64,000 nucleotides of DNA from an uncultured bacterium (GTDB taxonomy: Bacteria; Patescibacteriota; Patescibacteriia; Magasanikbacterales; GWA2-37-8): assembly GCA_937903605.1 (NCBI GenBank), contig CALCZC010000025.1, forward strand, positions 67,275-131,274, given 5' to 3'. How positions within the stretch are numbered: the stretch's first letter is position 1; each line of letters starts with the position of its first letter. This document shows, one piece after another, positions 17,785-42,717 of the stretch. The notes below the pieces were generated by a model that saw only the letters and a program-made list of their open reading frames with translations, was not told the DNA's origin and did not search any database. The translations under genes and the position numbers were made by a program.

Positions 17785-17861
17785 GATATTGAATATTAAA
17801 TATTGAATATTATTTTTATTTACGACTAATATCCAGTATTCAATATTCAGTATTTATTTTT

Positions 17862-18101
17862 ATGTCTTTTTTTGTCTACATTCTAAAGTGTTCCGACAAA
17901 ACTCTCTACACCGGTATTACCACCGACCTGAAACGCCGTATTGACGAACATAATTTTTCTGATTTGGGCGCCAAATACACCCGCGCGCGCCGTCCAGTCA
18001 AACTTGTTTGGTCAAAAAAGTTCAAAACCAGATCTTCCGCCGCGCGGATGGAGTATAAAATCAAACAGTTAAGCAGAGAAGAAAAATTAAAATTACTCTA
18101 G
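17862..18101 (+). CDS. GIY-YIG nuclease family protein (UPF0213-type)
   Basis: FVYILKCSDKTLYTGITTDLKRRIDEHN matches the GIY-YIG core. Confidence 0.8.
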   Translation: MSFFVYILKCSDKTLYTGITTDLKRRIDEHNFSDLGAKYTRARRPVKLVWSKKFKTRSSAARMEYKIKQLSREEKLKLL

Positions 18102-18102
18102 A

Positions 18103-18152
18103 TTGTCATCCTTGCACCCGTCAAGCGGGTATAAACTACAGCAGGGATCCAG
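18103..18152. repeat. family-1 palindromic repeat unit (GTCATCC…GGGATCCAG)
   Basis: ttgtcatccttgcacccgtcaagcgggtataaactacagcagggatccag. Near-identical inner part to the copy at 20743. Confidence 0.7.
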
Positions 18153-18364
18153 GAAATAATTATAAAAAAGCTCGCCTGAAAATGGCGAGTTTTTGTTCCC
18201 CTCTCTTTTTTAAGAGAGAGCTTGTCCGTCCGTAGTCCGGCGTAGTCTTAACGGAGCCTGGACGAAGGCGGAGGTTAGGGGAGAGTCTCTAAAAAATTTG
18301 TATTGAAGAAAATGTAAAAAAAGAGTAAAATATATTTGTTTTATATTAAAACATTATTAAATAT

Positions 18365-19204
18365 ATGGAGGAAAAAAATAAATTAGTGGTTTTGTTTGAA
18401 GATAATCCAGTACGTCGTTTATGGGATGAAAAAGAGGAGAAGTGGTATTTCAGCGTAGTGGATATTATTCAAATTTTAACTGGTAGTGTAGATGCGCGCG
18501 ATTATTGGTTTAAGATGAAAAAACGTGTTAAAAGTGACGATGGAATTGAGTTGTCGACAATTTGTCGTCAACTGAAATTAACAGCCAAAGATGGTAAAAA
18601 ATACTTGACAGATACGGCCAATATTGAAGGATTATTTCGTATTATTCAATCTGTCCCATCACCCAAAGCCGAACCAATAAAGCTTTGGCTAGCGCGTGTT
18701 GGTTATGAGCGCATGCAAGAAACTGTTGATCCGGAAAAATCTATCAATCGCGGTAGAAAAAATTGGCAAAGAATGGGGCGAAGTCAAAAATGGATTCAAC
18801 AAAGAATGATGGGGCAAGAAATAAGAAATAAATTGACGGATTATTGGAAAGATAATGAAGTAAAAGAAAAAGATGAATATGCGATTTTGACAAATATTAT
18901 TCATCAAGAATGGAGTGATTTGACGGTTAAAGAACACAAAAATTTAAAAGGTTTGAAAGTTCAAAATTTACGTGATCATATGACAGATGCGGAATTGGTT
19001 TTTACCGCATTGGCAGAATTATCCACGCGACAAATAGCTGAAACGATGCGAACCAAAGGTTTGGAAGAAAATAAAATTCCGGCACAAAAAGGCGGACGAA
19101 TTGCCAAAAATGCGCGATTGGAATTGGAAGAAAAAACGGGGAAAAAAGTGGTGACAAAAAACAATTTTCTCAAAAACATAGAAAACAGAAAAAGAATAAA
19201 ATAA
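18365..19204 (+). CDS. DinD / Bro-N-like DNA-damage-inducible family protein
   Basis: The N-terminal …RRLWDEKEEKWYFSVVDIIQILTGSVDARDYW… and C-terminal …GGRIAKNARLELEEKTGKKVV resemble E. coli DinD. Confidence 0.55.
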   Translation: MEEKNKLVVLFEDNPVRRLWDEKEEKWYFSVVDIIQILTGSVDARDYWFKMKKRVKSDDGIELSTICRQLKLTAKDGKKYLTDTANIEGLFRIIQSVPSPKAEPIKLWLARVGYERMQETVDPEKSINRGRKNWQRMGRSQKWIQQRMMGQEIRNKLTDYWKDNEVKEKDEYAILTNIIHQEWSDLTVKEHKNLKGLKVQNLRDHMTDAELVFTALAELSTRQIAETMRTKGLEENKIPAQKGGRIAKNARLELEEKTGKKVVTKNNFLKNIENRKRIK

Positions 19205-19223
19205 AAAAACCAAACAATAATTT

Positions 19224-19258
19224 CAACACTTCAGCCTATAGGTTGAAGTGTTTTTATT
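19224..19258 (+). terminator. family-2 conserved hairpin terminator (AACACTTCAGCC-TATA-GGTTGAAGTGTT + T-run)
   Basis: Palindrome followed by TTTTTATTTT. One of six near-identical copies. Confidence 0.7.
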
Positions 19259-19418
19259 TTCTTTGTTTTAGCAAAAATAAGTTGATTTATTTATTAGTAT
19301 AAATTTTAGTATTGCATTCGTATTATTAGTAAAATTAGTATATTGGTATCAATCAAAAAATTCAGTTGAATTTTTTAGGGAAAGAGAGTAAAATAAAGGC
19401 ATTAGTTGTTATAAAATT

Positions 19419-20402
19419 ATGAAGAAAAAAGTAAAAAACAATCAAGTTATTATTTATCAAGCCAAAAATGGAGCGATTGAGCTTCGGGGTGATAATTCCC
19501 GTGAGACTTTTTGGGCCACACAAGCGCAAATAGCGCGGTTGTTTGATGTTACTCCTCAAAATGTGACATTGCACTTAAATAATATCTATAAAGACAAAGA
19601 GCTTGAAATGTCGACAACTTGTAAGGAATCCTTACAAGTTCAAATCGAAGGGAAAAGAGAAATTAAAAGAACCGTTAAGTTTTATAACCTTGATGCGATT
19701 ATTGCTGTCGGCTATCGTATAAATTCCGTCTTGGGAACAAATTTTCGTATTTGGGCGACAAAGACTCTTCGTGGATATATTATCAACGGTTTTGTTATAA
19801 ATCGTAAACAAATATCGGTTCATTATTCGCAATTTTTGGAAGCTGTAGAAAATATCAAACAAATATTACCTGGAGCCGGAAATATAGATCAAAATAGTGT
19901 TTTGGAATTGATTTCCGCTTTTGCCAATACTTGGTTATCTCTGGAAGCTTATGATAAAGATAAAATGGTCAGCACCGGAAATACCAAAAAATCAGTAGTG
20001 ATAACCGCGGACAAATTAAAAAAAGCGTTGGGTGATTTCAAAAACGAGTTATTGAAGAAAGGCGAAGCAACGGAAATTTTCGGACAAGAAAAACACAGAG
20101 ATGCCGTAGGAAGTATTGTCGGTAATGTGATGCAATCGTTTGGCGGTAAATCGCTTTACGCAACCGTAGAAGAAAAAGCGGCCCATCTTCTTTATTTTTT
20201 GGTTAAAGATCATCCGTTTACAGACGGAAACAAACGAAGCGGTGCTTTCGCTTTTGTTTGGTTTTTGAAAAAAGCCGGTTTGCTTGATTCTTCCAAAATC
20301 ACTCCGCCCGCGCTCACGGCTATAACGCTTTTTATCGCTGAAAGCAATCCAAAACAAAAAGATAAGATGATTAAATTAGTTTTACAATTATTAAAAAAAT
20401 GA
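19419..20402 (+). CDS. RhuM-family N-terminal domain fused to Fic/Doc (death-on-curing) toxin-like domain
   Basis: RhuM-like N-terminus (…FRIWATKTLRGY…). Doc/Fic motif HPFTDGNKRSGA near the C-terminus. Confidence 0.75.
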   Translation: MKKKVKNNQVIIYQAKNGAIELRGDNSRETFWATQAQIARLFDVTPQNVTLHLNNIYKDKELEMSTTCKESLQVQIEGKREIKRTVKFYNLDAIIAVGYRINSVLGTNFRIWATKTLRGYIINGFVINRKQISVHYSQFLEAVENIKQILPGAGNIDQNSVLELISAFANTWLSLEAYDKDKMVSTGNTKKSVVITADKLKKALGDFKNELLKKGEATEIFGQEKHRDAVGSIVGNVMQSFGGKSLYATVEEKAAHLLYFLVKDHPFTDGNKRSGAFAFVWFLKKAGLLDSSKITPPALTAITLFIAESNPKQKDKMIKLVLQLLKK

Positions 20403-20407
20403 TATCC

Positions 20408-20532
20408 TGTGTCATCCTGAACGCAATGAAGGATCTGTAAATAAAACAGGACTTTGAATCAAATAATTTATTTTTTTGCAGACCTGCCTGCCGGCAGGCA
20501 GGTTCTTCGCTTGCGCTCAGAATGACAAATTA
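20408..20532. repeat. composite family-1 nested-hairpin element
   Basis: tGTCATCCtgaacgcaatgaaGGATCtg … ACCTGCCTGCCGGCAGGCAGGT (perfect 22-nt palindrome) … ctcagaATGACAa. Architecture parallels 44064-44176. Confidence 0.65.
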
Positions 20533-20552
20533 TACTAAATTTAGCCAAATTT

Positions 20553-20585
20553 AACACTTCACCCTATAGGTTGAAGTGTTTGTTT
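20553..20585 (+). terminator. family-2 hairpin terminator
   Basis: aacacttcaccctataggttgaagtgtttgtttt. Confidence 0.65.
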
Positions 20586-20742
20586 TATATTGACTTATAA
20601 CCCTGATCGTGTTATATTTTAAATAGGAGACATTCAAAATTTATTAGCGCGAAATGCGCCGTATAATTCTGGTGAAAACCAAGGCAACCGGGGAAATCTG
20701 CCGGAGTGCCGTATGAATTATATCGACTAACCAAAAAGGCAA

Positions 20743-20794
20743 TTGTCATTCCCGTACCCGTCAAGCGAGTATAAACTACAGCGGGAATCCAGTG
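20743..20794. repeat. family-1 palindromic repeat unit
   Basis: ttgtcattcccgtacccgtcaagcgagtataaactacagcgggaatccag. Confidence 0.7.
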
Positions 20795-20912
20795 GTCAAA
20801 GGCGGTTGGGAGATTTCATTCTAAGAGATAGTAATATCTTTTTGATGAAATCTCTTAGCCGCTTTTTTGTTTTTCAAAAAGGTCGAATCCGTAAAAACGG
20901 GAGAAAAACAAA

Positions 20913-21617
20913 ATGACTAATTTTAATTTTTTAACATCAATCTTTATGACACACAAAATACCTGAAGGATTAACCAAATGCAAAGTTTGCGGTTGGTATG
21001 ACGGACAAACGACCAGAGGTCAGTTCAATAACGGCGGGAGTTCCACTGAAAAAATCACCATATCCTGTCTTTGCAAAGGTTTGGTTTGTAAAAAATGCGG
21101 TCAAACCAAAATACCGAGACCTTGTTCCAATTCTTATGATGAAAAATCAAACACATTCGGACATTGGCCGTATTTCATCGGCATGATGACTACCTGTCCG
21201 GATTGCAGAAGGTTGGAAAAGATAATTGAAAAACCTTTTATCGGTTTTATCATTGATTGGAAAAAAATGTATTATGAAATAAATCTGGTCAATCCTACTG
21301 ATAGAAAAATTTCCAGCGTCTTGGCATATACAGGCGCGTTTTGCGGGGATACAGATGGCTTGATAGAGACAAGCAGGGTTACACGAGAAAAAGGGGAGAT
21401 GTTACCAAATTCATCAATTCTTTTGGAAAAAAGCGATGTTGACGGTTTGGAATTCGTGATTTGGTTTCATCTGGACATTTATTTTGAAGGAGAAGAAAAA
21501 CCCCTGAAAGTTTGGTTTAATATACCAAAAAATGGTTGGAATTATAAAGACAATGAAGAAATGCTTCCGGTATTGAATAAAAAAGGGCAAATAATAGAGT
21601 TAAAAGAGAGAAATTGA
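20913..21617 (+). CDS. Cys-rich (multiple CxxC) hypothetical protein
   Basis: N-terminal CKVC…CLCKGLVCKKC…CPDC zinc-binding-like clusters. No recognisable catalytic motif. Confidence 0.4.
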   Translation: MTNFNFLTSIFMTHKIPEGLTKCKVCGWYDGQTTRGQFNNGGSSTEKITISCLCKGLVCKKCGQTKIPRPCSNSYDEKSNTFGHWPYFIGMMTTCPDCRRLEKIIEKPFIGFIIDWKKMYYEINLVNPTDRKISSVLAYTGAFCGDTDGLIETSRVTREKGEMLPNSSILLEKSDVDGLEFVIWFHLDIYFEGEEKPLKVWFNIPKNGWNYKDNEEMLPVLNKKGQIIELKERN

Positions 21618-21655
21618 GATTGTATTTTTCTTCCAAAAATGCTAAACTTTATTCA

Positions 21656-21687
21656 GTGTCATTCCTGCGAAGGCAGGAATCCAGTGG
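21656..21687. repeat. family-1 short unit (gtcattcctgcgaaggcaggaatccagtgg)
   Basis: Same unit as 23710-23741 and (reverse complement) 62491-62522. Confidence 0.7.
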
Positions 21688-21754
21688 TTAATTCGAATTT
21701 CTCGGTTATTCGGGGCATTTGGATATTAATTTGTAGTATTCGGATTATATCTAT

Positions 21755-22342
21755 ATGAAATTAACACCAAAAATATTAAAAGCTATTAATTTTGCTAGCA
21801 AAAAGCATAAAAAGGGGGTTAGAAAAGGGGACAAGGGGTTGCCTTATATTAGCCACTGTTTTGCAACTGCCTGGATCTTGAACAGCTTTACCAAAGATGA
21901 AGATGTGATTGTCGCCGGTTTGCTTCACGATGTTATCGAAGATGTCTTGGGGCCCAAGGGTTACAAAATACTTCAAGAAAAATTCGGTCAGCGCGTGGTT
22001 GATATTGTGAAGGGTGTTACCGAAGACAAAGATCCCAACAAAAAAGAAGATGAAAAGCCATGGATTGAAAGAAAACAAGATTATCTTGATCATCTCAAAA
22101 AAGATAGCAAGGAATCCATGATGGTAAGTACAGCGGATAAAATACACAATTTGCAGTCCATGCGCGATGCTTATCGCGAACAAGGGGAAAAATTATGGAA
22201 GAATTTCAACTCTCCGGCGGATAAAAAGCTTTGGTTTTATGAAGAGGTTTATAAGATAGTAAAGGGAAAATTGAGGAATAAAATTGTAGAAGAGTTAAAT
22301 AAACAAATTAAAGGAGCAAAATATGAATTTCATTTATATTAA
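21755..22342 (+). CDS. HD-domain small (p)ppGpp/alarmone hydrolase-like protein (RelA/SpoT HD-type, paralog 1)
   Basis: …HCFATAWIL…AGLLHDVIEDV… matches the SpoT-type HD motif. 195 aa. About 70% identical to the product of 27353-27931. Confidence 0.75.
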   Translation: MKLTPKILKAINFASKKHKKGVRKGDKGLPYISHCFATAWILNSFTKDEDVIVAGLLHDVIEDVLGPKGYKILQEKFGQRVVDIVKGVTEDKDPNKKEDEKPWIERKQDYLDHLKKDSKESMMVSTADKIHNLQSMRDAYREQGEKLWKNFNSPADKKLWFYEEVYKIVKGKLRNKIVEELNKQIKGAKYEFHLY

Positions 22343-23057
22343 AAAAAGTTCAGCTATTGCCGGAATTATAGCTTTAGCTTTTATTTTTGCCGGAGTCGGT
22401 TATTTTTTCAAAGATAAAATACAAAAACAAAATTTTGATAATTATATTAATGAAAATAATGCAGAAAATTATTTTGAAGTCGTTAAAAAAGCCGACATGT
22501 GTTTGATGATGGAGCCAAAAGATATTGATTGTTTTATTTATAAAGCCAATGCTTTGGCAAAAATGGCTTATATTGACGAGGCTCTGAAAGTGTTAACCGA
22601 TGCAAAAAAATATGTAAATAAATGGTCTGATGAGGGTGAAGATTTAATACACTTATATTATTCTATCAGTGACAGAGGAAAAACGGACAAATGGAATCTA
22701 ATTTTAGATCAAGATATTCAGTGGAAAGGAAAAATTGGTATAGGGTTGGAACAGATTGACGGTATAAAATTTTATTTTATCGGAGATGATGGAAAAACAT
22801 CGCGAACAGCCGGTTGGCAAGATTGGTTTTGGGTTTTACCAACATCGACAGAGGAAATTGTAATAGAGAAAGATGGATGGGTAGAATATATGCTCAAAAG
22901 TTTTGGAAATATTGATATAAATACCGTAGATTTTATTAGTGATACGTTTTTGATAACAGGTAAATATACTAATTTTGATTGTGGTTTCTATGGAGATTAT
23001 ATGTGTGTACCAATAGTTGCTGTTGAGAAAATTGAAAGAATAAAAAATAACAAATAA
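22323..23057 (+). CDS. hypothetical protein with N-terminal TM helix
   Basis: 244-aa ORF overlapping the upstream stop. No motif recognised. Confidence 0.4.
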   Translation: MNFIYIKKSSAIAGIIALAFIFAGVGYFFKDKIQKQNFDNYINENNAENYFEVVKKADMCLMMEPKDIDCFIYKANALAKMAYIDEALKVLTDAKKYVNKWSDEGEDLIHLYYSISDRGKTDKWNLILDQDIQWKGKIGIGLEQIDGIKFYFIGDDGKTSRTAGWQDWFWVLPTSTEEIVIEKDGWVEYMLKSFGNIDINTVDFISDTFLITGKYTNFDCGFYGDYMCVPIVAVEKIERIKNNK

Positions 23058-23059
23058 AT

Positions 23060-23428
23060 ATGAAAATAGTTTATTCAAAATTCATTTCCGGTGCTTCTGC
23101 TTCGCGATTTAAAGTCAAAGGAGATAAAAAAAGTGTAAAAAATTGGAGAAATAATGTGATTGAACAAACCAAAGACGGGATAGGTATTATCAACAAAGAG
23201 TGTAGAATGAAAGTTATCTTTAAATTTCATTCAAGCAGATATCCAACAGATTTTCCATATGGTCCGGATTTAGATAACCACATAAAAAATTTATGGGATG
23301 GGCTTAATGAAACCATTTTTAAAAACGCACCAGGGCATGATAGTTGTGTAAAAATACTTCACGCGAGTAAACATAAAGTTGAAAAAGAAAAAGAAGCCGG
23401 AGTAAAAATAGAAATATCTTATATATAA
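23060..23428 (+). CDS. RusA-like Holliday-junction resolvase (phage-type), tentative
   Basis: About 120 aa with GPDLDNHIKNLWDGLNE, resembling the RusA DxDNxxKxxxDAL motif. Confidence 0.45.
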   Translation: MKIVYSKFISGASASRFKVKGDKKSVKNWRNNVIEQTKDGIGIINKECRMKVIFKFHSSRYPTDFPYGPDLDNHIKNLWDGLNETIFKNAPGHDSCVKILHASKHKVEKEKEAGVKIEISYI

Positions 23429-23473
23429 AATAAGAATATTTTCTATATTATTAAAAGCTAAAATAAGCCGGTT

Positions 23474-23531
23474 TTGTCATCCCCGCGAATCCGCCTTCGC
23501 CAGTTGGCGAATGGCGGAGGGGATCCGGTGG
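23474..23531. repeat. family-1 repeat with nested inner hairpin
   Basis: ttgtcatccccgcgaatccgccttcgccagttggcgaatggcggaggggatccggtgg. Confidence 0.7.
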
Positions 23532-23648
23532 TTAATTTTTGTAATCTTTCAATTTCGTAATTTCGCCTTTTTTTGTATGCTTAGCTTGTCCGGCGTAACT
23601 TTAGTGAAGTCGGATTATATTGTCCGTAAAAATAATATTCTGTATTTC

Positions 23649-23678
23649 AAACACTTCAGCCTAGGTTGAAGTGTTTTA
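23649..23678 (+). terminator. family-2 hairpin terminator
   Basis: aaacacttcagcctaggttgaagtgtttt. It is preceded by a duplicate of the last about 30 nt of the SNase gene's 3' end. Confidence 0.65.
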
Positions 23679-23700
23679 ATTTGCTTTGTTTTAGTAAAAT

Positions 23701-23788
23701 GTAGAACACATTGTCATTCCTGCGAAAGCAGGAATCCAGCGGTCGTCTCAATTTTCCTATATTCCTGCTTTCGCAGGAATTATGTTCT
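23701..23788. repeat. MITE-like family-1 element with terminal inverted repeats (TAGAACACAT … ATGTTCTA)
   Basis: Contains gtcattcctgcgaaagcaggaatccagcgg and a second hairpin attcctgctttcgcaggaat, bounded by imperfect TIRs. Confidence 0.6.
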
Positions 23789-23833
23789 AAATCTTTATTT
23801 GAATTTTATAATCAAAAAGAGTAAAATTCCATC

Positions 23834-24667
23834 ATGAAAAAACTTTATATTTCCATCATATTTCTACTATTTCTATCCGGTTGTACTTCCGAGGTTACGC
23901 AAAATAGTAAAGTAGAAATCAAAACCGAAAATCAAACCGTCACTGCGGTTGTTTCTTCTACCACAAATATAAAAATAAACGATGATTTTGATGATATAAA
24001 AACAGAAATTTTTGTTACTACCAATACCCCTACAAATTCAGAAAAAACTTTTTTGGTGACACGAGTTATTGACGGCGACACTATCGAGATAGAAGGCGGG
24101 CAAAAAGTGCGCTATATCGGTATAGACACTCCGGAAACTGTAGATCCGCGCAAACCCGTGCAATGTTTTGGCAAAGAAGCTTCCGCAAAAAACAAAGAAT
24201 TGGTGGAAGGCAAAAAAGTGCGTTTGGAAAAAGATGTTACAGACACGGATAAATACGGGCGCTTGTTGCGATACGTTTACATCGGCGATATTTTTGTAAA
24301 TCTGGAATTGGTCAAACAAGGTTACGCCTCCTCATATTCTTATCCGCCGGATATCAAATTTCAAAATATATTTTTGCAAGCTCAACAAGAAGCGCAAGCC
24401 AAGGATCTAGGTTTTTGGTCAGCTTGTGAAGAAAATAATATCCCCGAAATATCCACTCCTTCCATAAATACCACAACAAACAACAACAGCCCGACGGATT
24501 GTAAAATAAAAGGAAATATCAGTTCAAAAGAAGAAAAAATTTATCATTCTATAGGGTGTGATAGTTACGATCTTACAAAAATAGATGAGGCTAGGGGAGA
24601 GAGATGGTTTTGCACGGAAGAGGAAGCGGTGAACGCGGGGTGGAGAAAAGCATTAAATTGTCCGTAA
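23834..24667 (+). CDS. secreted/lipoprotein thermonuclease (staphylococcal nuclease, SNase-like)
   Basis: Lipobox LLFLSGCTS. SNase core VTRVIDGDTIEIEGGQKVRYIGIDTPE. Confidence 0.8.
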   Translation: MKKLYISIIFLLFLSGCTSEVTQNSKVEIKTENQTVTAVVSSTTNIKINDDFDDIKTEIFVTTNTPTNSEKTFLVTRVIDGDTIEIEGGQKVRYIGIDTPETVDPRKPVQCFGKEASAKNKELVEGKKVRLEKDVTDTDKYGRLLRYVYIGDIFVNLELVKQGYASSYSYPPDIKFQNIFLQAQQEAQAKDLGFWSACEENNIPEISTPSINTTTNNNSPTDCKIKGNISSKEEKIYHSIGCDSYDLTKIDEARGERWFCTEEEAVNAGWRKALNCP

Positions 24668-24686
24668 AAATAATATTCTGTATTTT

Positions 24687-24717
24687 AAACACTTCACCCT
24701 AGGGTGAAGTGTTTTAA
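24687..24717 (+). terminator. family-2 hairpin terminator (perfect palindrome variant)
   Basis: aaacacttcaccctagggtgaagtgtttt. Confidence 0.7.
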
Positions 24718-24802
24718 TTTTGTTTTATATTAGCAAAAATTTGTTTCTTGAGTTTTTTAGGGAAAAGGAGTAAAATAAATGCATCTTATTTAACAAAAAT
24801 TT

Positions 24803-25465
24803 ATGAAATTAAAGGAGGTTCCCGTCGTCGATAGACCGCGGGAAAAGTTGGAAAAATATGGGGTAAATAGGCTCAGTGACAGCGAGCTTATGGCTATTTT
24901 GATTCGCACCGGGATTGTTGGTAAAAATGTTGTGGAGCTTTCCAAACAAATTTTGAAAAAAATTAAAAAACTCGGTTTGGAAAAAATGGAAATGAAGGAT
25001 TTATTGGAAATAAAAGGTTTGGGAAAAACCAAGGCCGGGCAGATATTGGCAAGCTTGGAAATCGGTCGCCGTTTTCTTCAAAACAAAAAATCCGAATTAA
25101 TACTTTCTCCGCAAGATGTTTGGAACGAAATGAAAGACTTGCGCGACAGTAAAAAAGAACATTTTGTTATTTTTTATCTAGACACGCAAAATCAAATTAT
25201 TAAAAGAGAAATTATTTCCGTCGGCACGTTAAACGAAAGTCTGATTCATCCGCGAGAAGTTTTTGAACCGGCTGTCAGATATTCCACGGCGCAAATAATC
25301 ATGGCGCACAACCATCCGTCCGGGAATTTGGAACCGTCGCCTGAAGATGTCGCAGTTTCAAGACGTTTGATAGACGCCGGAAATTTATTGGGGATTGAAG
25401 TTTTGGATCATATTATCATAACAAAGGACGGTTTTAAAAGCATGAAAGAATTAAAAATGTTATAG
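24803..25465 (+). CDS. radC: RadC-like JAB/MPN domain protein
   Basis: JAMM motif HNHPSGNLEPSPEDV and an N-terminal HhH-like region. Confidence 0.85.
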   Translation: MKLKEVPVVDRPREKLEKYGVNRLSDSELMAILIRTGIVGKNVVELSKQILKKIKKLGLEKMEMKDLLEIKGLGKTKAGQILASLEIGRRFLQNKKSELILSPQDVWNEMKDLRDSKKEHFVIFYLDTQNQIIKREIISVGTLNESLIHPREVFEPAVRYSTAQIIMAHNHPSGNLEPSPEDVAVSRRLIDAGNLLGIEVLDHIIITKDGFKSMKELKML

Positions 25466-25468
25466 GTT

Positions 25469-26089
25469 ATGTCAAATCACTATACAGAAAAATTAAAAGC
25501 GGCTTTAAAAAAACGAGTTTATGTTTACATAGACGCGGCTAATTTGGAACGCTCGGTACAGGATATGTGGGTAAACTCCAAAGATATTCCGGATAATTTA
25601 AAAGAAAATAAAGCGGAAGAGTTGCACTATCGCGTAGATTATCAAAAATTTAAAGCTTATTTTGACAAAATTTCCGATTTAAAAGAAATAAAATTTTATT
25701 CCGCCGATTTTAATAATGAAAAGCACAGTAAGTTTTTATGGTTTTTAAGTAAAATATTAAAATTTAAATTAGGAACAAAACCTTTGAAAGAATATACTGA
25801 CCACACTCCTGAAACTCCGCACCGAAAAGCAAATTTTGACGTAGAACTGGCGGTAGATGCTACTTATCATTTGAATAAATATGACACTTTGGTTTTGTTT
25901 TCAGGAGATTGTGATTTTGAATACCTGATCAAATTTTTGAAGGGTCATGGTAAAGTGGTTATTGTTTTTTCACGGGTCGGACATGTGGCCAAAGAACTTC
26001 CGCCAGCAAGCAGTTATTATTTTGACATAGTGGACTTTAGACAGGAATTGTTAAAAATAGAAACTAAAACGCAAAAAATCCCGCGATAA
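25469..26089 (+). CDS. NYN/LabA-like (PIN-fold) nuclease-domain protein
   Basis: VYVYIDAANL…LVLFSGDCDFEYLIKFLKGHGKVVIV matches the NYN Asp pattern. Starts 4 nt after radC. Confidence 0.7.
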   Translation: MSNHYTEKLKAALKKRVYVYIDAANLERSVQDMWVNSKDIPDNLKENKAEELHYRVDYQKFKAYFDKISDLKEIKFYSADFNNEKHSKFLWFLSKILKFKLGTKPLKEYTDHTPETPHRKANFDVELAVDATYHLNKYDTLVLFSGDCDFEYLIKFLKGHGKVVIVFSRVGHVAKELPPASSYYFDIVDFRQELLKIETKTQKIPR

Positions 26090-26405
26090 AGCGGGATTCT
26101 GCAGTTGATTACAAGTGATACTGCTATCACCTGTAATTCAACTATACATTAATTTTACGATTTTGTCAATGTTATCCACAACGGAAAAAGTACCTAAGAT
26201 TGTTGTAATACTAAATAAACAAAAAACCCAATCGGTTAGATTAGGCGCTTTGTTGAAGTAGCGTCTTAAAAAGTGGTTATCTGCGGCTTAAGTCCCGAGT
26301 TCCTCGGGGGAACACCACAGCGCTCTCTAAGCTATTATTGCATACTTCAAGATTAATATACCACAAAACCCCTTTTTCGCCAATATCAGCTTATCCACAG
26401 GTTTT

Positions 26406-26435
26406 TTGTCATCCTGAACTTGATTCAGGATCTCC
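26406..26435. repeat. family-1 short unit (gtcatcctgaacttgattcaggatctccc)
   Basis: Palindromic ATCCTGAA-cttga-TTCAGGAT core. Confidence 0.6.
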
Positions 26436-26473
26436 CTTTAAGTCTAATTTCGCCTGTTCAAGGCGGATTTTTT

Positions 26474-26506
26474 AACACTTCAGCCTGTAGGTTGAAGTGT
26501 TTTTGT
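26474..26506 (+). terminator. family-2 hairpin (no annotated CDS immediately upstream)
   Basis: aacacttcagcctgtaggttgaagtgtttttgttt. Confidence 0.55.
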
Positions 26507-26795
26507 TTGGGTTGAATTAGCGAAAATTTATTTTTGACAAAATCACCAAAATATACTATACTACTAATAGTTACAATCTAAAATAATTATTTATCAAGAG
26601 CGCAGGTAGTTTCTTCGCCGAGGCGGAGAACTTAGGGATCTAGCCCAAAATCTGCCGGCAACCTCTGTGGCTGACTGCCAAAGAAAGGTGCCAATTCTAG
26701 CCCGAATAGGGAAAGATGATCGTCGATTTTTTGTTTCTTGAGCAAAAAGCATCTTTCCCACCCGGGAAAGATTTTTAATTTTTAATAATGAATAT

Positions 26796-27173
26796 ATGAT
26801 AACTGAAAATTTTAATACTTATACTTTTAAATTTTTATCAGGGGTTAAAAATAAAATGACGGAGTTTACCGAAGAACCGGATCTTATTGTTTATGAATCA
26901 ATAGGATTAGCCACGGCTGGCAGTGTAGAACATGCAATTATTCTTGCTTTACAACATAAAGAAGGTTTTTTAAAAGAGGCAGTAGGGTATAGAGTCAGAG
27001 AAAATAATGATATTATTAAAATTCTCAGCAAAGCCACGGGTAAAGATTATGTCGGAGTGGAGTTTTATAAGTTAAAAAGAAAAAATCAAGAAGAATTAAG
27101 TGGTATAGGTAAGTTTTTTGCGGACAATTTGAACAAGAATGTCCTGGAAGATCAAAAAAAGATGAAAAATTGA
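26796..27173 (+). CDS. hypothetical protein
   Basis: 125-aa ORF. No motif recognised. Confidence 0.35.
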   Translation: MITENFNTYTFKFLSGVKNKMTEFTEEPDLIVYESIGLATAGSVEHAIILALQHKEGFLKEAVGYRVRENNDIIKILSKATGKDYVGVEFYKLKRKNQEELSGIGKFFADNLNKNVLEDQKKMKN

Positions 27174-27352
27174 AGTTTTCTTAAAAAAATGCTAAACTTT
27201 AATGGCAATATTCGTATAAATTTTAGTATAGCACTAGTATAATTAGTATCAATTATTCGTATCTATGAAATTAATATTAAATTAGTATAAATTTTAGTAT
27301 TACATTCGTATCATTAGTACAATTAGTATATTAGTATCAATTATTTGTATCT

Positions 27353-27931
27353 ATGAAACTAACTCCCAAAATACAAAAAGCCATCAATTACGCCAGTCGT
27401 TTGCATGCCAAACAGATAAGAAAAGGGGATAAAGACCTGCCTTATGTCAGCCATTGCTTCACCGCGGCTTGGATTCTCAATGAATTTACCAAAGACGAAG
27501 ATATTATCGTGGCCGGATTGCTTCACGATGTACTGGAAGATGTTCCGGGTTATGGTTACGAAAGGATGAAAAAAGATTTTGGCGCGCGAGTGGCGAAAAT
27601 AGTCGCCGGTGTTACCGAAGATAAAGATCCCAATAAAAAAGAGAAAGAGAAGCCGTGGATTGAAAGAAAACAGAAATATCTCGAGCATCTCAAAAAAGAT
27701 AGCCGGGAATCCATGATGGTAAGCGCAGCGGATAAAATACACAATTTGCAGTCCATGCGCGATGCTTATTGCGAACAAGGGGAGAAATTGTGGAAGCATT
27801 TCAATGCTACAAAAGAGGAATCTCTTTGGTTTTATGAGCAAGTTTATAAGATTATTAGGGGGAAATTGAGGAATAAAATTGTGGGGGAATTGGGGAAACA
27901 ATTGGCAGGGGCAAAAAAGGAATTTAAATAA
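27353..27931 (+). CDS. HD-domain small alarmone hydrolase-like protein (paralog 2)
   Basis: …HCFTAAWILNEFTKDEDIIVAGLLHDVLEDV… matches the SpoT-type HD motif. Paralog of 21755-22342. Confidence 0.75.
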   Translation: MKLTPKIQKAINYASRLHAKQIRKGDKDLPYVSHCFTAAWILNEFTKDEDIIVAGLLHDVLEDVPGYGYERMKKDFGARVAKIVAGVTEDKDPNKKEKEKPWIERKQKYLEHLKKDSRESMMVSAADKIHNLQSMRDAYCEQGEKLWKHFNATKEESLWFYEQVYKIIRGKLRNKIVGELGKQLAGAKKEFK

Positions 27932-27935
27932 TTTT

Positions 27936-27968
27936 TAACACTTCAGCCTGTAGGTTGAAGTGTTTGTT
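27936..27968 (+). terminator. family-2 hairpin terminator
   Basis: aacacttcagcctgtaggttgaagtgtttgtttt. Confidence 0.65.
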
Positions 27969-27986
27969 TTGTGTAATTTTGGCCAT

Positions 27987-28076
27987 TTTGTCATTCCTGT
28001 GGGCCAAAGGCCTCCCTTTGGGAAAGGCAGAGATCTAGGCACTTGTCATCCCCGCGCAGGCGGGGATCCAATGACT
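27987..28076. repeat. two adjacent family-1 units
   Basis: ttgtcattcctgtgggccaaaggcctccctttgggaaaggcagagatctagg + cttGTCATccccgcgcaggcggggatccaATGAC. Confidence 0.7.
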
Positions 28077-28175
28077 AATTTTTCGCAATTTTTCGTATTT
28101 TTATAATTCAAAAATTGGTATTGTAAAAAAGGGGGAAAGAGAGTAAAATATAGACAACTTATTTAATAAAAATTT

Positions 28176-29105
28176 ATGAAAAGTTATTATCGTATAATGC
28201 TTGGCAAGGGTAGTGTTTATGCCAAAGAAGCAAGGTTAGAAAATTTTATGGGCGCCGGATGGCTTGGTGATATTGATTTAACAAATGAATTACCAGAAAG
28301 TCGAGTTGAATTCAATAAGAAATTCATACCTGTTTATTTAAAAAAACATCCTGATGCAAAGAAAATGTCAGCGGCCCTTGCTTGTGGTATGTTATACACG
28401 ATCGCAAAAGGTATTGTTATTGGTGATATTGTTTTATGTCCGGATGGGTCAGGTAATTATTATTTCGGAGAAGTCATTGGTGATTATCAATATGTGTCGG
28501 GAGTAAACTTACCGCACCGTCGTGCTGTGAAATGGTATTCCAAAATTATTCCCAGAGAAGAAATGAGTCAAGCTTTAAAATATTCCACTGGCGCCATTGG
28601 TACAGTTAGCAATATAACCGATCATGCTTCTGAATTAGAAAAATTGATATCAGGTAATGTTGAAAGTCCGATTGTTGTGACCGACGAGTCAATTGAAGAC
28701 CCAAGTGTATTTATGTTAGAGAAACATCTAGAGGATTTTTTGGTACAAAATTGGAACAATACTGAATTGGGTAAGAATTATAATATTTATGAAGAAGATG
28801 GTGAAATAGTGGGGCAACAATATCCTAGCGATACTGGTCCAATAGATATTTTGGCAATTAGTAAAGATAAAAAAACACTTTTGGTAGTTGAGTTAAAAAA
28901 AGGACGCGCAAGTGATGTGGTGGTCGGCCAAATTCAAAGGTACATGGGTTATGTAAAAGACGAATTAGCAGAAAAAAATCAAGAAATTAAAGGGGTTATA
29001 ATTGCTTTTGAAGATGATATTAAAATTCGCCGTGCTTTATCGGTTGCAAATAACATCGATTTTTATACTTATAAAATTGATTTTAAACTTGAAAAAAATA
29101 AATAA
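28176..29105 (+). CDS. YhcG/DUF1016-like PD-(D/E)xK nuclease-domain protein
   Basis: C-terminal …GPIDILAISKDKKTLLVVELKKGRASDVVVGQIQRYMGY… is a D…ExK motif resembling YhcG. It is the first gene of a tightly spaced 15-gene array. Confidence 0.5.
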   Translation: MKSYYRIMLGKGSVYAKEARLENFMGAGWLGDIDLTNELPESRVEFNKKFIPVYLKKHPDAKKMSAALACGMLYTIAKGIVIGDIVLCPDGSGNYYFGEVIGDYQYVSGVNLPHRRAVKWYSKIIPREEMSQALKYSTGAIGTVSNITDHASELEKLISGNVESPIVVTDESIEDPSVFMLEKHLEDFLVQNWNNTELGKNYNIYEEDGEIVGQQYPSDTGPIDILAISKDKKTLLVVELKKGRASDVVVGQIQRYMGYVKDELAEKNQEIKGVIIAFEDDIKIRRALSVANNIDFYTYKIDFKLEKNK

Positions 29106-29107
29106 TT

Positions 29108-30682
29108 ATGACTAATTTTAATACTTCAAAAGAACAAGAACGTGCCGAGCTTCATCGTGCTATTTGGCAAATTGCTAATGATCTAAGGGGAAGTGTAGAT
29201 GGTTGGGATTTCAAACAATATGTTTTGGGAATTTTGTTTTATAGATTTATTGGTGAAAATCTTTCTAATTATATCAATAAACAACAGAGAAAAGTTAAAG
29301 GGTTTGAAAATTTTGAATATTCAAATTTGAGCGATAAAGAAGCAGAATTGGGTAAAAAAGAAATTGTGTTGGCAAAGGGTTTCTATATTCTTCCAAGTGA
29401 GCTTTTTGTAAATGTTCGTAAAAATGCTAAAAACAATGCAAATTTAAACGAAACTCTTTCAAGAGTTTTTAGTAATATTGAAAATTCTGCAAAAGGTTTT
29501 GATAGTGAGGATGATATAAAAGGGTTATTTGCTGACCTTGATGTCAATTCTCCAAAACTTGGAAATACAGTTGAAAAACGTAATCAAAAATTAGTAAAAC
29601 TTTTAGATGCTATTGGAGATCTTCAATTAGGAAATTACTCTGATAATACTATCGATGCTTTCGGTGATGCTTATGAGTTTTTAATGACCATGTATGCTTC
29701 AAATGCTGGTAAATCTGGAGGTGAATTTTATACACCACAAGAAGTTAGTGAATTACTTGCAAAAATTACGACTGTGGGTAAAAAAGAGGTAAACAAAGTT
29801 TATGATCCATGTTGTGGTTCAGGATCGCTTCTTTTGAAATTTGCCAAAGTTCTTGGTAAAGAAAATGTCCGGCTTGGTTTTTTTGGTCAAGAAATAAATC
29901 TTACCACCTATAATTTGTGTCGTATCAACATGTTTTTACACGATATCAACTATAATCATTTTGATATTGAGCTCGGTGACACACTAACTGATCCCAAACA
30001 TTGGGATGACGAACCTTTTGATGCTATAGTTTCTAACCCGCCTTATTCAATTAATTGGGAAGGGGACGCTAATCCGCTTTTAATAAACGACCCTCGTTTT
30101 TCGCCTGCTGGAGTACTTGCTCCAAAGAGTAAAGCTGATTTGGCTTTCACCATGCACATGCTTTCGTGGCTTTCTACCAGCGGAACGGCGGCGATTGTTG
30201 AATTCCCTGGAGTTCTTTATCGTGGTGGAGCTGAAGCAAAAATCCGCAAATATTTGATTGATAACAATTACGTTGATGCTGTAATACAACTTCCACTAGA
30301 TCTTTTCTTTGGTACAACCATTGCTACTTGTGTTATCGTTTTAAAGAAGAGTAAAAAAGACAATAAGACTTTATTTATCGATGCTTCCGCTGAATTTGTT
30401 CGGGGTGGTAATAAAAATAAATTAAACGAAGAAAATCGTAAAAAGATCCTGAATGCTTTTATAGAAAGAAAAGATATAGAACATTTTGCAAAAATTATAG
30501 ATAACAAAGCTATTGCAGAAAATGATTACAATCTAGCAGTTTCTAGTTATGTGGAGCAAAAAGACACTAGAGAAGCAGTGGACATAAAAGAACTTAATAA
30601 AGAAATTGAGAGAATCGTAAAAAGACAAAGTGAATTAAGGTTGGCAATTGATGAGATTGTGAGGGAGATTGAGGGTAATTAA
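29108..30682 (+). CDS. hsdM: Type I restriction-modification system, DNA methyltransferase subunit M
   Basis: N6-adenine MTase motif IV NPPYS, an AdoMet-binding region (DPCCGSGSLL), and an HsdM N-terminal domain. Confidence 0.9.
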   Translation: MTNFNTSKEQERAELHRAIWQIANDLRGSVDGWDFKQYVLGILFYRFIGENLSNYINKQQRKVKGFENFEYSNLSDKEAELGKKEIVLAKGFYILPSELFVNVRKNAKNNANLNETLSRVFSNIENSAKGFDSEDDIKGLFADLDVNSPKLGNTVEKRNQKLVKLLDAIGDLQLGNYSDNTIDAFGDAYEFLMTMYASNAGKSGGEFYTPQEVSELLAKITTVGKKEVNKVYDPCCGSGSLLLKFAKVLGKENVRLGFFGQEINLTTYNLCRINMFLHDINYNHFDIELGDTLTDPKHWDDEPFDAIVSNPPYSINWEGDANPLLINDPRFSPAGVLAPKSKADLAFTMHMLSWLSTSGTAAIVEFPGVLYRGGAEAKIRKYLIDNNYVDAVIQLPLDLFFGTTIATCVIVLKKSKKDNKTLFIDASAEFVRGGNKNKLNEENRKKILNAFIERKDIEHFAKIIDNKAIAENDYNLAVSSYVEQKDTREAVDIKELNKEIERIVKRQSELRLAIDEIVREIEGN

Positions 30683-30688
30683 ATTAAT

Positions 30689-32890: not shown

Positions 32891-32891
32891 T

Positions 32892-34010
32892 ATGAAAAAA
32901 CACCAATCAAAAATTGAAAAACTAATTTCAGAACTATGCCCTAATGGTGTGGAGTTTAAAATGCTTGGAGAACTAGAAGATGATAATTTGATTAAACTTG
33001 GACGTGGAAATGTAATTTCAAAAACTGATATTACAAACACACCTGGTGATTATCCGGTTTATTCTTCATCTGCAAATGATGAGGGCGAATTTGGCAGGTA
33101 TGGAAAATATATGTTTGATGATGAAAGAATTACGTGGTCAATCGATGGGGGCGGTAGATTTTTTTATAGACAGTCACATAAATATTCTGTAACAAATGTA
33201 TCGGGGTGGTTAAAAGTAAATGATAATAATGTATTAAATTTACGTTATTTGTATTTTGTTCTGTCAAATGCTTGGTTAACAAAAGTTTTTGATTATACAA
33301 AAAAAGCTCATCCTTCAGTAATTAGAGAAGAGTACAAAATCCCTATTCCACCTCTTGCAATTCAAGAAGAAATTGTAAAAATTCTTAATAGTTTTACGGA
33401 GCTGGAAGCGGAGCTGGAAGCGGAGCTGGAAGTAAGAAAGAAACAGTATGATTATTACCATAAAGAACTTTTTGATTTAAGGGATGATTTCGAATTAAAA
33501 ACACTTGGGGATATTTACGAATTTCAATATGGAGAAGGAAATACTATTCCTACTTCAGGGGATAAATTTCCAGTATATGGAAGTAATGGTATTGTTGGTT
33601 CTCATGAAAAATTCAACAGTGAAGATGCTCCGGTGATTGGACATATTGGAGCTTACGCAGGAATAGTAAATTGGGCTCAAGGAAAACACTTTGTTACATA
33701 CAACGGAGTTATTTGTAAAATCAAGCCAGGAGTTAATCCAAGGTTTGGTTATCATCTGTTGATTCTCCAAGATTTTAGATCAAAAGCAAACGCAGGGTCT
33801 CAACCTTTTGTTTCTTACGACATGCTTAGAAAAACCGAAGTAAAAATACCTCCTATTTTAATACAAAATAAAATTGCAGATGTCCTTGATAAATTTGATG
33901 CACTTGTAAACGATATTTCAGTTGGTTTGCCTGCCGAGCTCAAAGCACGTAGGTCACAATACGAATATTATAGAAATAAACTTCTTGATTTTAAAGAGTT
34001 AGAAAAATAA
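32892..34010 (+). CDS. hsdS: Type I restriction-modification system, specificity subunit S
   Basis: Two target-recognition domains. Central and C-terminal conserved helices (…LAIQEEIVKILNSFTELEAEL… and …LPAELKARRSQYEYYRNKLLDF). Confidence 0.85.
   Translation: MKKHQSKIEKLISELCPNGVEFKMLGELEDDNLIKLGRGNVISKTDITNTPGDYPVYSSSANDEGEFGRYGKYMFDDERITWSIDGGGRFFYRQSHKYSVTNVSGWLKVNDNNVLNLRYLYFVLSNAWLTKVFDYTKKAHPSVIREEYKIPIPPLAIQEEIVKILNSFTELEAELEAELEVRKKQYDYYHKELFDLRDDFELKTLGDIYEFQYGEGNTIPTSGDKFPVYGSNGIVGSHEKFNSEDAPVIGHIGAYAGIVNWAQGKHFVTYNGVICKIKPGVNPRFGYHLLILQDFRSKANAGSQPFVSYDMLRKTEVKIPPILIQNKIADVLDKFDALVNDISVGLPAELKARRSQYEYYRNKLLDFKELEK
33398..33433 (+). repeat. 3× 12-bp in-frame tandem repeat (GGAGCTGGAAGC; EAEL units) in the central conserved region of hsdS
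   Basis: ggagctggaagcggagctggaagcggagctggaagt. Confidence 0.85.
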
Positions 34011-34011
34011 T

Positions 34012-35166: not shown

Positions 35167-35169
35167 ATT

Positions 35170-38226: not shown

Positions 38227-38232
38227 GTTTGT

Positions 38233-38946: not shown

Positions 38947-38953
38947 TAAAAAT

Positions 38954-39592: not shown

Positions 39593-39603
39593 TTTAAATA
39601 AAT

Positions 39604-40946: not shown

Positions 40947-40947
40947 T

Positions 40948-41745: not shown

Positions 41746-41753
41746 ATTTTAGA

Positions 41754-42107: not shown

Positions 42108-42110
42108 TTT

Positions 42111-42713: not shown

Positions 42714-42717
42714 ATTT

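Follow-up and report, generated by a model that had tools for sequence, protein, structure and literature searches.

What are the short palindromic repeats that crowd an accessory island in the genome of an uncultured Candidatus Magasanikbacteria, and which enzyme acts on them? The repeats lie in a 64-kb stretch of contig CALCZC010000025.1 (assembly GCA_937903605.1, positions 67,275 to 131,274 of the forward strand), which was analysed as a whole and is called the window below. A first-pass annotation regarded them as nested palindromes resembling MITEs (miniature transposable elements with inverted repeats) or Rickettsia palindromic elements (RPEs) and suggested that they mediate cassette shuffling. 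Judged by their sequence, we identify the repeats as strand-oriented hairpins of the family that comprises the Neisseria Transformation Sequence (NTS) and the Ssn-related motif (SRM). They resemble repetitive extragenic palindromic (REP) sequences in behaviour and add new features to this known family. We believe, with a probability of roughly 0.6, that these hairpins are acted on as single-stranded DNA (ssDNA) by a small GIY-YIG nuclease, and a candidate gene for it adjoins one of the copies.

Repeat units in the window

About 15 oriented units were found in the window, 12 on the plus strand and 3 on the minus strand. The G of the GTCAT motif is located at 18105, 20411, 20745, 21658, 23476, 23713, 26408, 27990, 28045, 44066, 48244, and 62427 in the plus units and at 20526, 44176, and 62520 in the minus units. 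Each minus unit lies tail-to-tail with a plus unit, forming three doublets that all end in TGTCAT...ATGACA. Two flank-less hairpins (23761-23780 and 26075-26100) and a weak candidate in hsdM were kept outside this count. The first-pass annotation gave 11 coordinates (18103, 20408, 20743, 21656, 23474, 23701 (copy at 23711), 26406, 27987, 44064, 48242, and 62426), and a copy was present at every one of them. The copies are as follows.

18103..18152, plus strand: complex singlet with inner hairpin ACCCGTCAAGCGGGT, directly 3' of the stop codon of the GIY-YIG gene
20410..20528, no single strand: doublet of a plus unit at 20410-20437 (GTCATCCTGAACGCAATGAAGGATC), the palindrome CCTGCCTGCCGGCAGGCAGG at 20483-20502, and a minus unit at 20503-20528
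20743..20792, plus strand: complex singlet with 86% identity to copy 18103 (family D11)
21656..21688, plus strand: simple singlet TGTCATTCCTGCGAAGGCAGGAATCCAGTGGT, 45.4 bits with the covariance model, at the left junction of an HD-domain cassette
23474..23528, plus strand: complex singlet with a long inner hairpin TCCGCCTTCGCC...GGCGAATGGCGGA, within a 357-nt block common to the related locus L224
23711..23780, no single strand: simple plus-strand singlet at 23711-23739 with a degenerate inverted partner at 23761-23780 (44.3 and 21.3 bits)
26406..26435, plus strand: simple singlet of the ATCCTGAAC...GTTCAGGAT subtype, 34 bits with the covariance model
27988..28037, plus strand: degenerate complex singlet of the three-way-junction form
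28043..28071, plus strand: simple singlet TGTCATCCCCGCGCAGGCGGGGATCCAA, 43.9 bits with the covariance model, additional to the first-pass list
44064..44179, no single strand: doublet at the right edge of the island, with a simple plus unit at 44064-44092, the palindrome CCTGCCTGTCCGGTAGGCAGG at 44110-44130, and a complex minus unit at 44131-44179
48242..48291, plus strand: complex three-way-junction singlet in frame in mnmA (47837-48976), encoding LSSRGPKASLWERRESS
62425..62522, no single strand: doublet between convergent genes, with a complex plus unit at 62425-62475 (GTTAT variant) and a simple minus unit at 62490-62522
29985..30012, minus strand: possible weak copy in hsdM (CGTCATCCCAATGTTTGGGATCAG), 13.6 bits, E 0.3, which may be due to chance

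Each unit has the anatomy T-GTC-[AT-YCCYGC…GCRGGR-AT]-C-CAG, often followed by TGGT, so the last two bases of the GTCAT pentamer are the start of the G+C-rich stem. Fourteen of the 15 units carry the GTC, which is replaced by GTT at 62427, and all 15 carry the C behind the stem. When 13 simple copies were aligned, the invariant columns were G, T, C, A, and T before the stem and A, T, and C after it. Ten of the approximately 15 units lie within 18.1-28.1 kb. Most are intergenic; one is intragenic, possibly two. The window has 35% G+C, and almost all of its genes are on the plus strand. Its MnmA, among other proteins, assigns it to Candidatus Magasanikbacteria within the Patescibacteria.

Several lines of evidence indicate that this family is real. 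The 12-mer GTCATCCCCGCG matched the window 9 times with at most two mismatches against 1.33 expected, and none of 100 shuffles reached 9. A covariance model trained on the 13 simple copies, which include six from the window, scored those six at 34-45 bits (E 6e-7 to 4e-10). In the simple-copy alignment, 96% of the stem cells were paired and four of the eight pairs were changed on both sides; such compensatory changes support a hairpin structure. Folded as ssDNA, the units and doublets reached z-scores of -2.2 to -4.7 relative to shuffles. The doublet at 20410-20528 folded with -24.5 kcal/mol (z -4.7), its two halves pairing together. No Rfam family matched the hairpin repeats.

The copies can be aligned through their conserved flanks and basal stem, which bears out the earlier description of a nested palindromic family. 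Simple units have a 4-nt loop, and composite units retain the same flanks and basal stem and carry added hairpins in the loop. Three composite types were recognised: the ACCCGTCAAGCGGGT inner hairpin (18103 and 20743), the long hairpin (23474), and a three-way junction with GGCC-AAA-GGCC followed by TCCC-TTT-GGGA (27988, 48242, 62425, and, on the minus strand, 44131-44179). The inner modules GGGCCAAAGGCC and CCTGCCTGCCGGCAGGCAGG that had been named before are present, and so is CCGCCTTCGCC in the 23474-23528 copy. Because of the extra hairpins in their loops, the long composite copies were detected only weakly by the simple-copy model (E 0.07-5), and the three-way-junction form therefore needed its own alignment.

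A metagenome scan with the 3' half of the three-way junction yielded 10 further contigs in mostly unrelated contexts. In the alignment of 13 copies, 97% of the cells were paired, and compensatory changes were present in the basal stem and in inner hairpin 1 (GGCC/GGCC, CCCC/GGGG, and AGCC/GGCT); inner hairpin 2 was fixed by the search pattern, and its invariance is uninformative. The three-way-junction form is a real, conserved sub-family. It was not found in the viral collection. In two doublets, the palindrome CCTGCCTGCCGGCAGGCAGG lies directly against the minus unit (20483-20502 and 44110-44130), and in other genomes it is nested in hairpin loops (L049 and L101; the compared loci are cited here by L numbers).

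Relation to the Neisseria transformation sequence

The NTS is a 28-nt sequence, CGTCATTCCCGCGMAVGCGGGAATCYRG, that encompasses the older dRS3 repeat ATTCCC-N8-GGGAAT (Chenal et al., Nat Commun 2025, PMC11893778). The same study defined the looser SRM, with the pattern HGTCWYN(0-2)YYVSBRHN(0-5)WNVSBRGN(0-2)RNCYNB, and reported that small single-domain GIY-YIG proteins (Ssn, cd10448) and such hairpins show a spatial association across phyla. The meningococcal SsnA binds the hairpin only as ssDNA and on one strand only, and its cut falls just upstream of the hairpin. Cleavage depends on the three bases 5' of the palindrome, and binding depends most on the C that immediately adjoins it on the 3' side. 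Substrates with a split stem are still cut, so the loop is replaceable. Transformation with NTS-containing DNA is lowered by SsnA. Rickettsia was listed among the SRM-rich genomes, and SRMs were not equated with RPEs (PMC11893778).

Copies 21656 and 23711 share 25 of 28 bases with the NTS; of the three mismatches, two make up a compensatory change from C-G to T-A. The invariant GTC and post-palindrome C of the window family are the bases that SsnA needs for cleavage and binding, which supports the assignment to the NTS/SRM family. The dispensable loop in the SsnA assays fits the nested variants, in which the basal stem and flanks are kept. Copy 44064 (match at 44065) is the sole window copy that fits the SRM pattern exactly, with 0.03 matches expected, and the pattern also fits copies in L001, L005, and L052. 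The partner hairpin at 23761-23780 is without the GTCAT flank and is dRS3-like.

The hairpin is not confined to one lineage. Matching 25-29-mers were found in records of Sphingopyxis, Azospirillum, Photobacterium, and Neisseria, in a Sulfurimonadaceae genome, and in at least 120 viral contigs. The 25-mer GTCATCCTGAACTTGATTCAGGATC of copy 26406 was identical in the Sulfurimonadaceae genome L089 and near-identical in Doudnabacteria (L069).

The adjoining GIY-YIG nuclease gene

A gene of the island encodes a small nuclease whose stop codon is 1 nt before copy 18103.

17862..18101, plus strand: 79-aa single-domain GIY-YIG gene, Ssn-like or UPF0213-like, candidate for the cognate ssDNA nuclease (Pfam GIY-YIG, E 2.5e-20)

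The Pfam GIY-YIG domain spans residues 3-75 of the 79-aa protein. It is the single domain of this protein, which is shorter than 150 aa and keeps the catalytic Tyr/Tyr/Glu. Y6, Y16, R26, H30, N31, and E64, which are of the catalytic type, were invariant among its homologs. The SsnA mutants in the Neisseria study were Y6A, Y17A, and E64A (PMC11893778). Homologs with 60-90% identity occur across the candidate phyla radiation (CPR), Campylobacterota, and other groups. The hairpin-flanked GIY-YIG proteins of the viral contigs are 32-35% identical to the window protein and further still from the gonococcal protein. The compared small GIY-YIG proteins align end to end and so form one radiation.

The association between this gene and the hairpins extends beyond the window. 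The loci of 80 close homologs contained 18 element sites, of which 5 were at most 150 nt from the GIY-YIG gene against 1.0 expected (p ~0.003). In L024, L059, and L093, a doublet starts at or a few bases from the GIY-YIG stop codon; L052 has a single inverted copy in this position, and a doublet of L045 stops shortly before the start codon. A copy follows the gene in L223, as in the window. The converse search gave a similar picture: six small GIY-YIG genes were detected by tblastn in 120 viral contigs whose sole selection criterion was the hairpin, and for five of these genes a hairpin was 25-172 nt from a gene end. A generic search for GTCWY plus any hairpin gave 0.80/kb near the gene and 0.79/kb elsewhere at the 80 homologs, and this noisy detector was replaced by the covariance model. 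GIY-YIG genes on Legionella, Sphingomonas, and Acidiphilium plasmids, which might have bridged to SsnA, had no canonical hairpin in their flanks. The single GIY-YIG open reading frame (ORF) of the N. gonorrhoeae chromosome (L098), which we took as the SsnA ortholog, had no NTS with at most two mismatches within 1.2 kb. We consider the 79-aa protein, whose gene adjoins a copy in the window, most likely to be the cognate nuclease of the hairpins.

Strand bias and proposed mechanism

All nine singlets are on the plus strand (p = 0.004). The GC skew of the plus strand is positive throughout the window, which makes it the leading-strand sequence and the parental plus strand the lagging-strand template.

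An RNA-level role would also account for a strand bias. The transcribed stem-loops would stabilise, process, or terminate the cassette mRNAs, and co-orientation would reflect transcription. Every singlet is indeed co-oriented with the genes, several copies follow stop codons (18103 and 20410), and the stem covariation fits RNA as well as ssDNA. However, no oriented unit has a terminator-like T tail. The terminators come from a separate adjoining family, AACACTTCAGCC...GGTTGAAGTGTTTTT, and a terminator scan picked that family and no oriented unit. Some copies are in frame in coding sequence, and the doublets hold both orientations. The invariant single-stranded flanks are those needed by an ssDNA nuclease that is inactive on RNA (PMC11893778). 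We therefore regard a primary role at the RNA level as distinctly improbable.

The favoured explanation, in which a GIY-YIG nuclease acts on the hairpins as ssDNA, would run as follows. The hairpin would fold when the plus strand becomes single-stranded, as the lagging-strand template, as incoming transforming DNA, or as ssDNA from conjugation or phages. The folded hairpin would be bound by a small nuclease with a single GIY-YIG domain, most likely the 79-aa protein (17862-18101), which would nick the plus strand a few bases 5' of GTC, mirroring SsnA and the NTS in Neisseria. Nicking would restrict or redirect the recombination of ssDNA segments flanked by hairpins, and this altered recombination would explain the copies between island cassettes and at the island edges. 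Our preferred guess for the spread of the elements is copying initiated by the nuclease. CPR cells are thought to rely heavily on DNA uptake, and sites for an ssDNA nuclease at the junctions of a defence island may control which segments are replaceable by transformation.

Some results weigh against this explanation. The strict SRM pattern recovers only one of the approximately 15 window copies; the others deviate by a C-to-T change in the stem, by the final base of the flank, or by more than 5 nt inserted in the loop. The 79-aa protein aligns with the N. gonorrhoeae SsnA homolog over its full length at 29-30% identity (41-43.5 bits), and it is nearer to E. coli YhbQ (42%, 65 bits). Its best PDB matches are the UPF0213 proteins 1zg2 and 1ywl (E 6e-18). 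Ssn proteins have been defined by blastp E < 1e-10 with at least 75% coverage to N. meningitidis SsnA, or by cd10448 as the top CDD hit (PMC11893778). Judged from the gonococcal proxy, the 79-aa protein would probably fail the blastp threshold. Most of the 80 homolog loci are without a nearby element (2 of 80 have the SRM pattern and approximately 14 of 80 a covariance-model match). In L224, whose nuclease is 89% identical, a terminator and not a hairpin follows the GIY-YIG gene, and in the window itself the gene is flanked by a hairpin on one side only. Gene orientation and replication direction are confounded in the window. Finally, the window covers 64 kb of the genome, and a second GIY-YIG gene or a gene for a RAYT (tyrosine transposase linked to REP sequences) could lie elsewhere.

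Mobility of the hairpins and in-frame copies in mnmA

The copy at 48242-48291 lies in frame in mnmA, a conserved gene, and the MnmA alignment showed length variation at several loops. At the DNA level, the site after ATGHYA has no element in L001, a simple 29-nt unit in L004 and L005, and the same 50-nt three-way-junction unit in the window and L233. The window and L004 share the flanking sequence, and their units differ by 21 nt, which leaves the mnmA frame unchanged. In L100, mnmA has an 84-nt in-frame doublet after YTIGQR. In L101, the first site holds a different singlet and the second a doublet, and a singlet with the CCTGCC palindrome nested in its loop lies near the C-terminus. Overall, mnmA copies occur at at least four sites in several lineages, and the reading frame is kept in all of them. 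A unit can be read through in five of its six frames, which accounts for the tolerance of insertions.

Hairpin mobility was only hypothesised in the published work on Ssn and SRM (PMC11893778). The empty, simple, and complex states at one codon position of mnmA, together with independent in-frame insertions elsewhere in the gene, clearly show that the hairpins are, or were, mobile. In this lineage, they have spread as singlets, inverted doublets, nested forms, and in-frame coding copies. The comparison with RPEs made by the first-pass annotation was thus apt: relatives have a simple copy, a complex copy, or none at the site of the in-frame window copy, and copies at three further sites. Contigs with exact window proteins were either of the same strain or broken at the repeats, and they provided no polymorphism at strain level. 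Such elements inflate and diversify CPR proteins and break metagenome assemblies.

The palindrome CCTGCCTGCCGGCAGGCAGG is apparently translated in frame in MnmA homologs as ...ACRQAG.... The AT-rich word repeats ATTAGTAT/TTCGTAT, AAACTCAAAAC, and AAGATTACAAG fill promoter regions of the window (19293-19353, 27210-27341, 47680-47730, and 44027-44057). Such words are seemingly translated in frame in the MnmA homologs P0003, P0009, and P0012, as KSIKSVKS, RKLKVESRKLKDFE, and LRTTDYGL repeats, so low-complexity insertions in CPR proteins are not confined to the hairpin family. The plasmid-collection record NZ_CP076395.1 of Sphingopyxis indica has a 29/29 match to TTGTCATTCCCGCGAAAGCGGGAATCCAG at 32499-32527, under an annotated ileS; copies within genes may therefore also occur in Alphaproteobacteria. 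The Logan assemblies SRR3330210-12 (L009, L010, and L012) are three independent assemblies of the same strain, and all of them start 36 nt before the HIT gene, near the 44.1-kb doublet; the repeats thus appear to fragment metagenome assemblies.

As classical MITEs, the elements would be deletion derivatives of insertion sequences (IS) with a DDE transposase, moving by cut-and-paste through terminal inverted repeats. The doublets, with their TGTCAT...ATGACA termini and lengths of 98-119 bp, are of MITE-like size. Terminal inverted repeats had been reported for some copies, and the three doublets do have them. The functional unit, however, is the single oriented hairpin and not a pair of inverted repeats. 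Approximately 20 junctions were inspected, and none showed a consistent target-site duplication. One-ended singlets are the commonest form, and no transposase, integrase, RAYT, or IS was found in the window. The matching 25-29-mers across phyla are also unlike lineage-specific MITEs. The MITE label is largely refuted by these results, and we leave this explanation a very small chance. The motifs CCAGT, CCGGT, and CAGT on both sides of three copies were tried as a target-site duplication and rejected, since other copies are without them and the motif overlaps the 3' end of the element.

Alternatively, the hairpins could be REP sequences and the inverted doublets REPINs, moved by a RAYT, with the adjacent GIY-YIG gene incidental or merely ssDNA-degrading. 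A RAYT encoded outside the window is the main rival for the spreading step. The three tail-to-tail doublets of the window and the many doublets in relatives (L024, L059, L093, L100, and L101) agree with this, as do the missing target-site duplications and the strand bias, which are shared with ssDNA elements of the IS200/IS605 type. The Neisseria core ATTCCCGCGCAGGCGGGAATC was handled by Bertels and Rainey as a REPIN population with the RAYT NMAA_0235. On the other hand, the window units are mostly singlets, and the window has no RAYT or IS200 gene. When E. coli RayT and IS608 TnpA were searched by tblastn over 1.72 Mb of fetched loci, one weak match only was obtained, in a search that is a weak test for a single-copy gene and would miss divergent RAYTs. 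Of this sequence, 1.14 Mb had been chosen for the hairpin. Small GIY-YIG genes did turn up beside hairpins in the hairpin-selected sequence. We judge a RAYT-driven origin unlikely. The weak RayT-like match (21%, E 1e-4) is at 3436-3834 of L031, a Sulfurovum metagenome-assembled genome, approximately 200 nt downstream of a GIY-YIG homolog and without detectable hairpins.

It is also conceivable that, in CPR bacteria, the UPF0213/YhbQ-like GIY-YIG nuclease itself, and not a tyrosine or DDE transposase, propagates the hairpins. A nick by the GTC of the folded strand would be followed by repair or template switching, and copies of the element would arise at new positions, inside the loops of elements already present, and in frame within genes. 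We offer this idea tentatively and consider it rather doubtful. If it were true, a GIY-YIG gene together with its hairpins would be a distinct class of ssDNA mobile element, and a function would be assigned to the widespread UPF0213 family.

The accessory island and its cassettes

Most copies lie in an accessory island, which the first-pass annotation placed at 18-28 kb. The island is real and larger than that.

17785..44245, plus strand: accessory (defence-type) island holding most copies, absent in L001 and L004, with other cargo in L005

In L001 and L004, a conserved 699-aa gene is followed after 12 nt by the HIT gene; the two are 26.4 kb apart in the window. The first 10 kb of the island hold small monocistronic genes (GIY-YIG, Bro-N, Fic/RhuM, two HD-domain, RusA, SNase, RadC, and NYN) and ten hairpin units. 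Beyond it are a type I restriction-modification system, HEPN/AbiU2, and other genes, and one doublet lies 65 nt inside the right boundary of the island. No hairpin is present at the empty site of L001 and L004, and under the covariance model the L005 island has none.

The cassette content varies among relatives. L223 carries GIY-YIG, NYN, HD, RadC, NYN, and then a type I system, and L224 carries MetK, HD-like, GIY-YIG, nSTAND-like, and DUF3800 cassettes; these two loci have near-identical nuclease genes and different cassette sets. Two junctions are at a hairpin. The homology between the window and L223 at the HD cassette begins exactly after ...ATCCAGTGG (...CCAGTGG) of copy 21656-21688, and in L223 the other side of this junction is unrelated and without a hairpin. 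A 357-nt block, composed of hairpin 23474, a terminator, and hairpin 23711 with its partner, recurs in L224 with 97% identity behind a different upstream gene. Its left edge is approximately 25 nt before the first hairpin. Other repeats, namely a terminator family of 58-74 nt and promoter-region repeats, also bracket cassettes; the SNase cassette, for example, lies exactly between 23614-23687 and 24652-24725, which share 92% identity. The suggestion of cassette shuffling is thus partly upheld. Content varies and two junctions are at a hairpin, but mediation by the hairpins is unproven and the terminator and promoter repeats would serve recombination equally well. The hairpins may create cassette junctions or merely accumulate there.

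An array of small genes separated by palindromes also recalls integrons, in which the hairpins would be attC sites at cassette 3' ends captured by a tyrosine integrase. It is established that attC sites are recognised as folded single strands. The island consists of co-oriented small genes split by imperfect palindromes with variable centres. No integrase, however, was found in the island or its surroundings. GTCAT and ATCCAG, and not RYYYAAC and GTTRRRY, are conserved at the ends; the cassettes come with promoter-like and terminator repeats of their own; and some copies are inside genes or well away from the array. We see scarcely any chance that these are attC sites.

The second repeat family in the island is an intrinsic-terminator hairpin, AACACTTCAGCC(T)NTAGGTTGAAGTGTT with a T run, often inside a conserved block of 58-74 nt. 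It was found at 19225-19252, 20555-20582, 23649-23676, 24687-24714, 26474-26501, and 27937-27964 and follows most island cassettes. Through homologous recombination between these terminator repeats, cassettes could plausibly be gained and lost. A third palindromic element, TTGTCCGTCCGTAGTCCGG...CTGGACGAAGGCGGA (18226-18276), is inserted in a hairpin CCCCTCTC...GGGGAGAG that is uninterrupted in L224, and a similar element is present at the left end of the L005 island (~2790-2840). The AT-rich direct repeat GATATTGAATATTNAATATTG, 75% over 40 nt, lies at 17766-17805, at the left island boundary, and at 43892-43931, approximately 330 nt before the right boundary. Its left copy is part of an inverted repeat (17786-17855). 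It could be an att-like duplication or a mere recurrent AT-rich word.

Several RNA-like and paralogous features were also noted in the island. The minus strand holds a DUF3800-V RNA (Rfam RF02964, 72.9 bits) at 26254-26349 that has promoter-like and terminator-like sites of its own, and the window lacks a DUF3800 gene. A DUF3800 protein gene directly adjoins the homologous stretch (93% identical) in L224, so the window RNA appears to be a retained orphan. A full-length SAM-I riboswitch match at 26588-26722 on the plus strand scored 38.8 bits against the Rfam gathering threshold of 44.4 (E 3e-6), with an apparent insertion. Downstream lie a terminator-like hairpin (26751-26772) and a 125-aa ORF without a Pfam match; in L224 a similar SAM-I-like leader (72% identical) is approximately 250 nt upstream of metK. 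At 20590-20740, a promoter-like TTGACT-17-TATATT with TG is followed by approximately 120 nt of G+C-richer sequence, …GGTGAAAACCAAGGCAACCGGGGAAATCTGCCGGAGTGCC…, before hairpin 20743 and a 234-aa ORF. This region had no Rfam match at E 0.1 or better and is possibly a structured leader. The HD-domain (HD_4) genes at 21755-22342 and 27353-27931 are paralogous, with 71-80% DNA identity and a common upstream block ...AAAAATGCTAAACTTTA. A hairpin unit directly follows this block in the first paralogue only. As filled and empty sites, the two upstream regions are too divergent to fix insertion boundaries.

Comparison with known systems

Compared with integron attC sites, the hairpins are likewise imperfect palindromes with variable centres between co-oriented cassettes, and attC sites too act as folded single strands. 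They differ by the missing integrase, other conserved ends, cassette-borne promoters and terminators, and copies inside genes.

RPEs are palindromic repeats of ~100-150 bp, in Rickettsia-specific families, that insert in frame into protein genes, where they are tolerated as surface peptides, and also occur in intergenic regions. The window family shares with them the in-frame insertion into a conserved protein gene and the intergenic copies. Its units are 29-55 nt (doublets ~100-120 nt) with another consensus; RPEs were compared by description only.

With REP, bacterial interspersed mosaic element (BIME), and REPIN sequences, the hairpins share several traits: short oriented palindromes, a conserved single-stranded 5' motif, singlets and inverted doublets, a mostly extragenic location, and, presumably, action on ssDNA. 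E. coli REPs have a conserved 5' motif of the GTAG type, whereas the motif here is GTCAT. No RAYT was found, and adjacency suggests a GIY-YIG nuclease as the partner.

The closest relatives are the NTS and SRM hairpins. The hairpin sequence is nearly the same, with the same orienting flanks (GTC on the 5' side and C on the 3' side). In both, there are many copies, mostly intergenic and clustered round particular non-core genes, flank-less dRS3-like copies occur beside oriented ones, and a small single-domain GIY-YIG gene directly adjoins a copy. There are also differences. The host here belongs to the CPR (Patescibacteria; Candidatus Magasanikbacteria), a group not mentioned in PMC11893778. 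The window nuclease is ~30% identical to the Neisseria SsnA homolog and nearer to the uncharacterised UPF0213/YhbQ group, and its gene has a repeat on one side only. Many window copies have hairpins in the loop, whereas the published pattern allows 0-5 loop bases. In-frame copies are common in a conserved gene here, whereas 2% of the NTS are intragenic in N. meningitidis (PMC11893778). The CPR host, the UPF0213-like partner, the conserved three-way junction, and the frequent in-frame insertion into a housekeeping gene are thus features not described for the NTS/SRM family. Ssn and SRM were described in 2025, mainly in Pseudomonadati, and a near-identical hairpin is now found in a Patescibacteria genome. 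It seems either that conservation of the DNA site far exceeds that of its presumed enzyme or that the site works with other partners.

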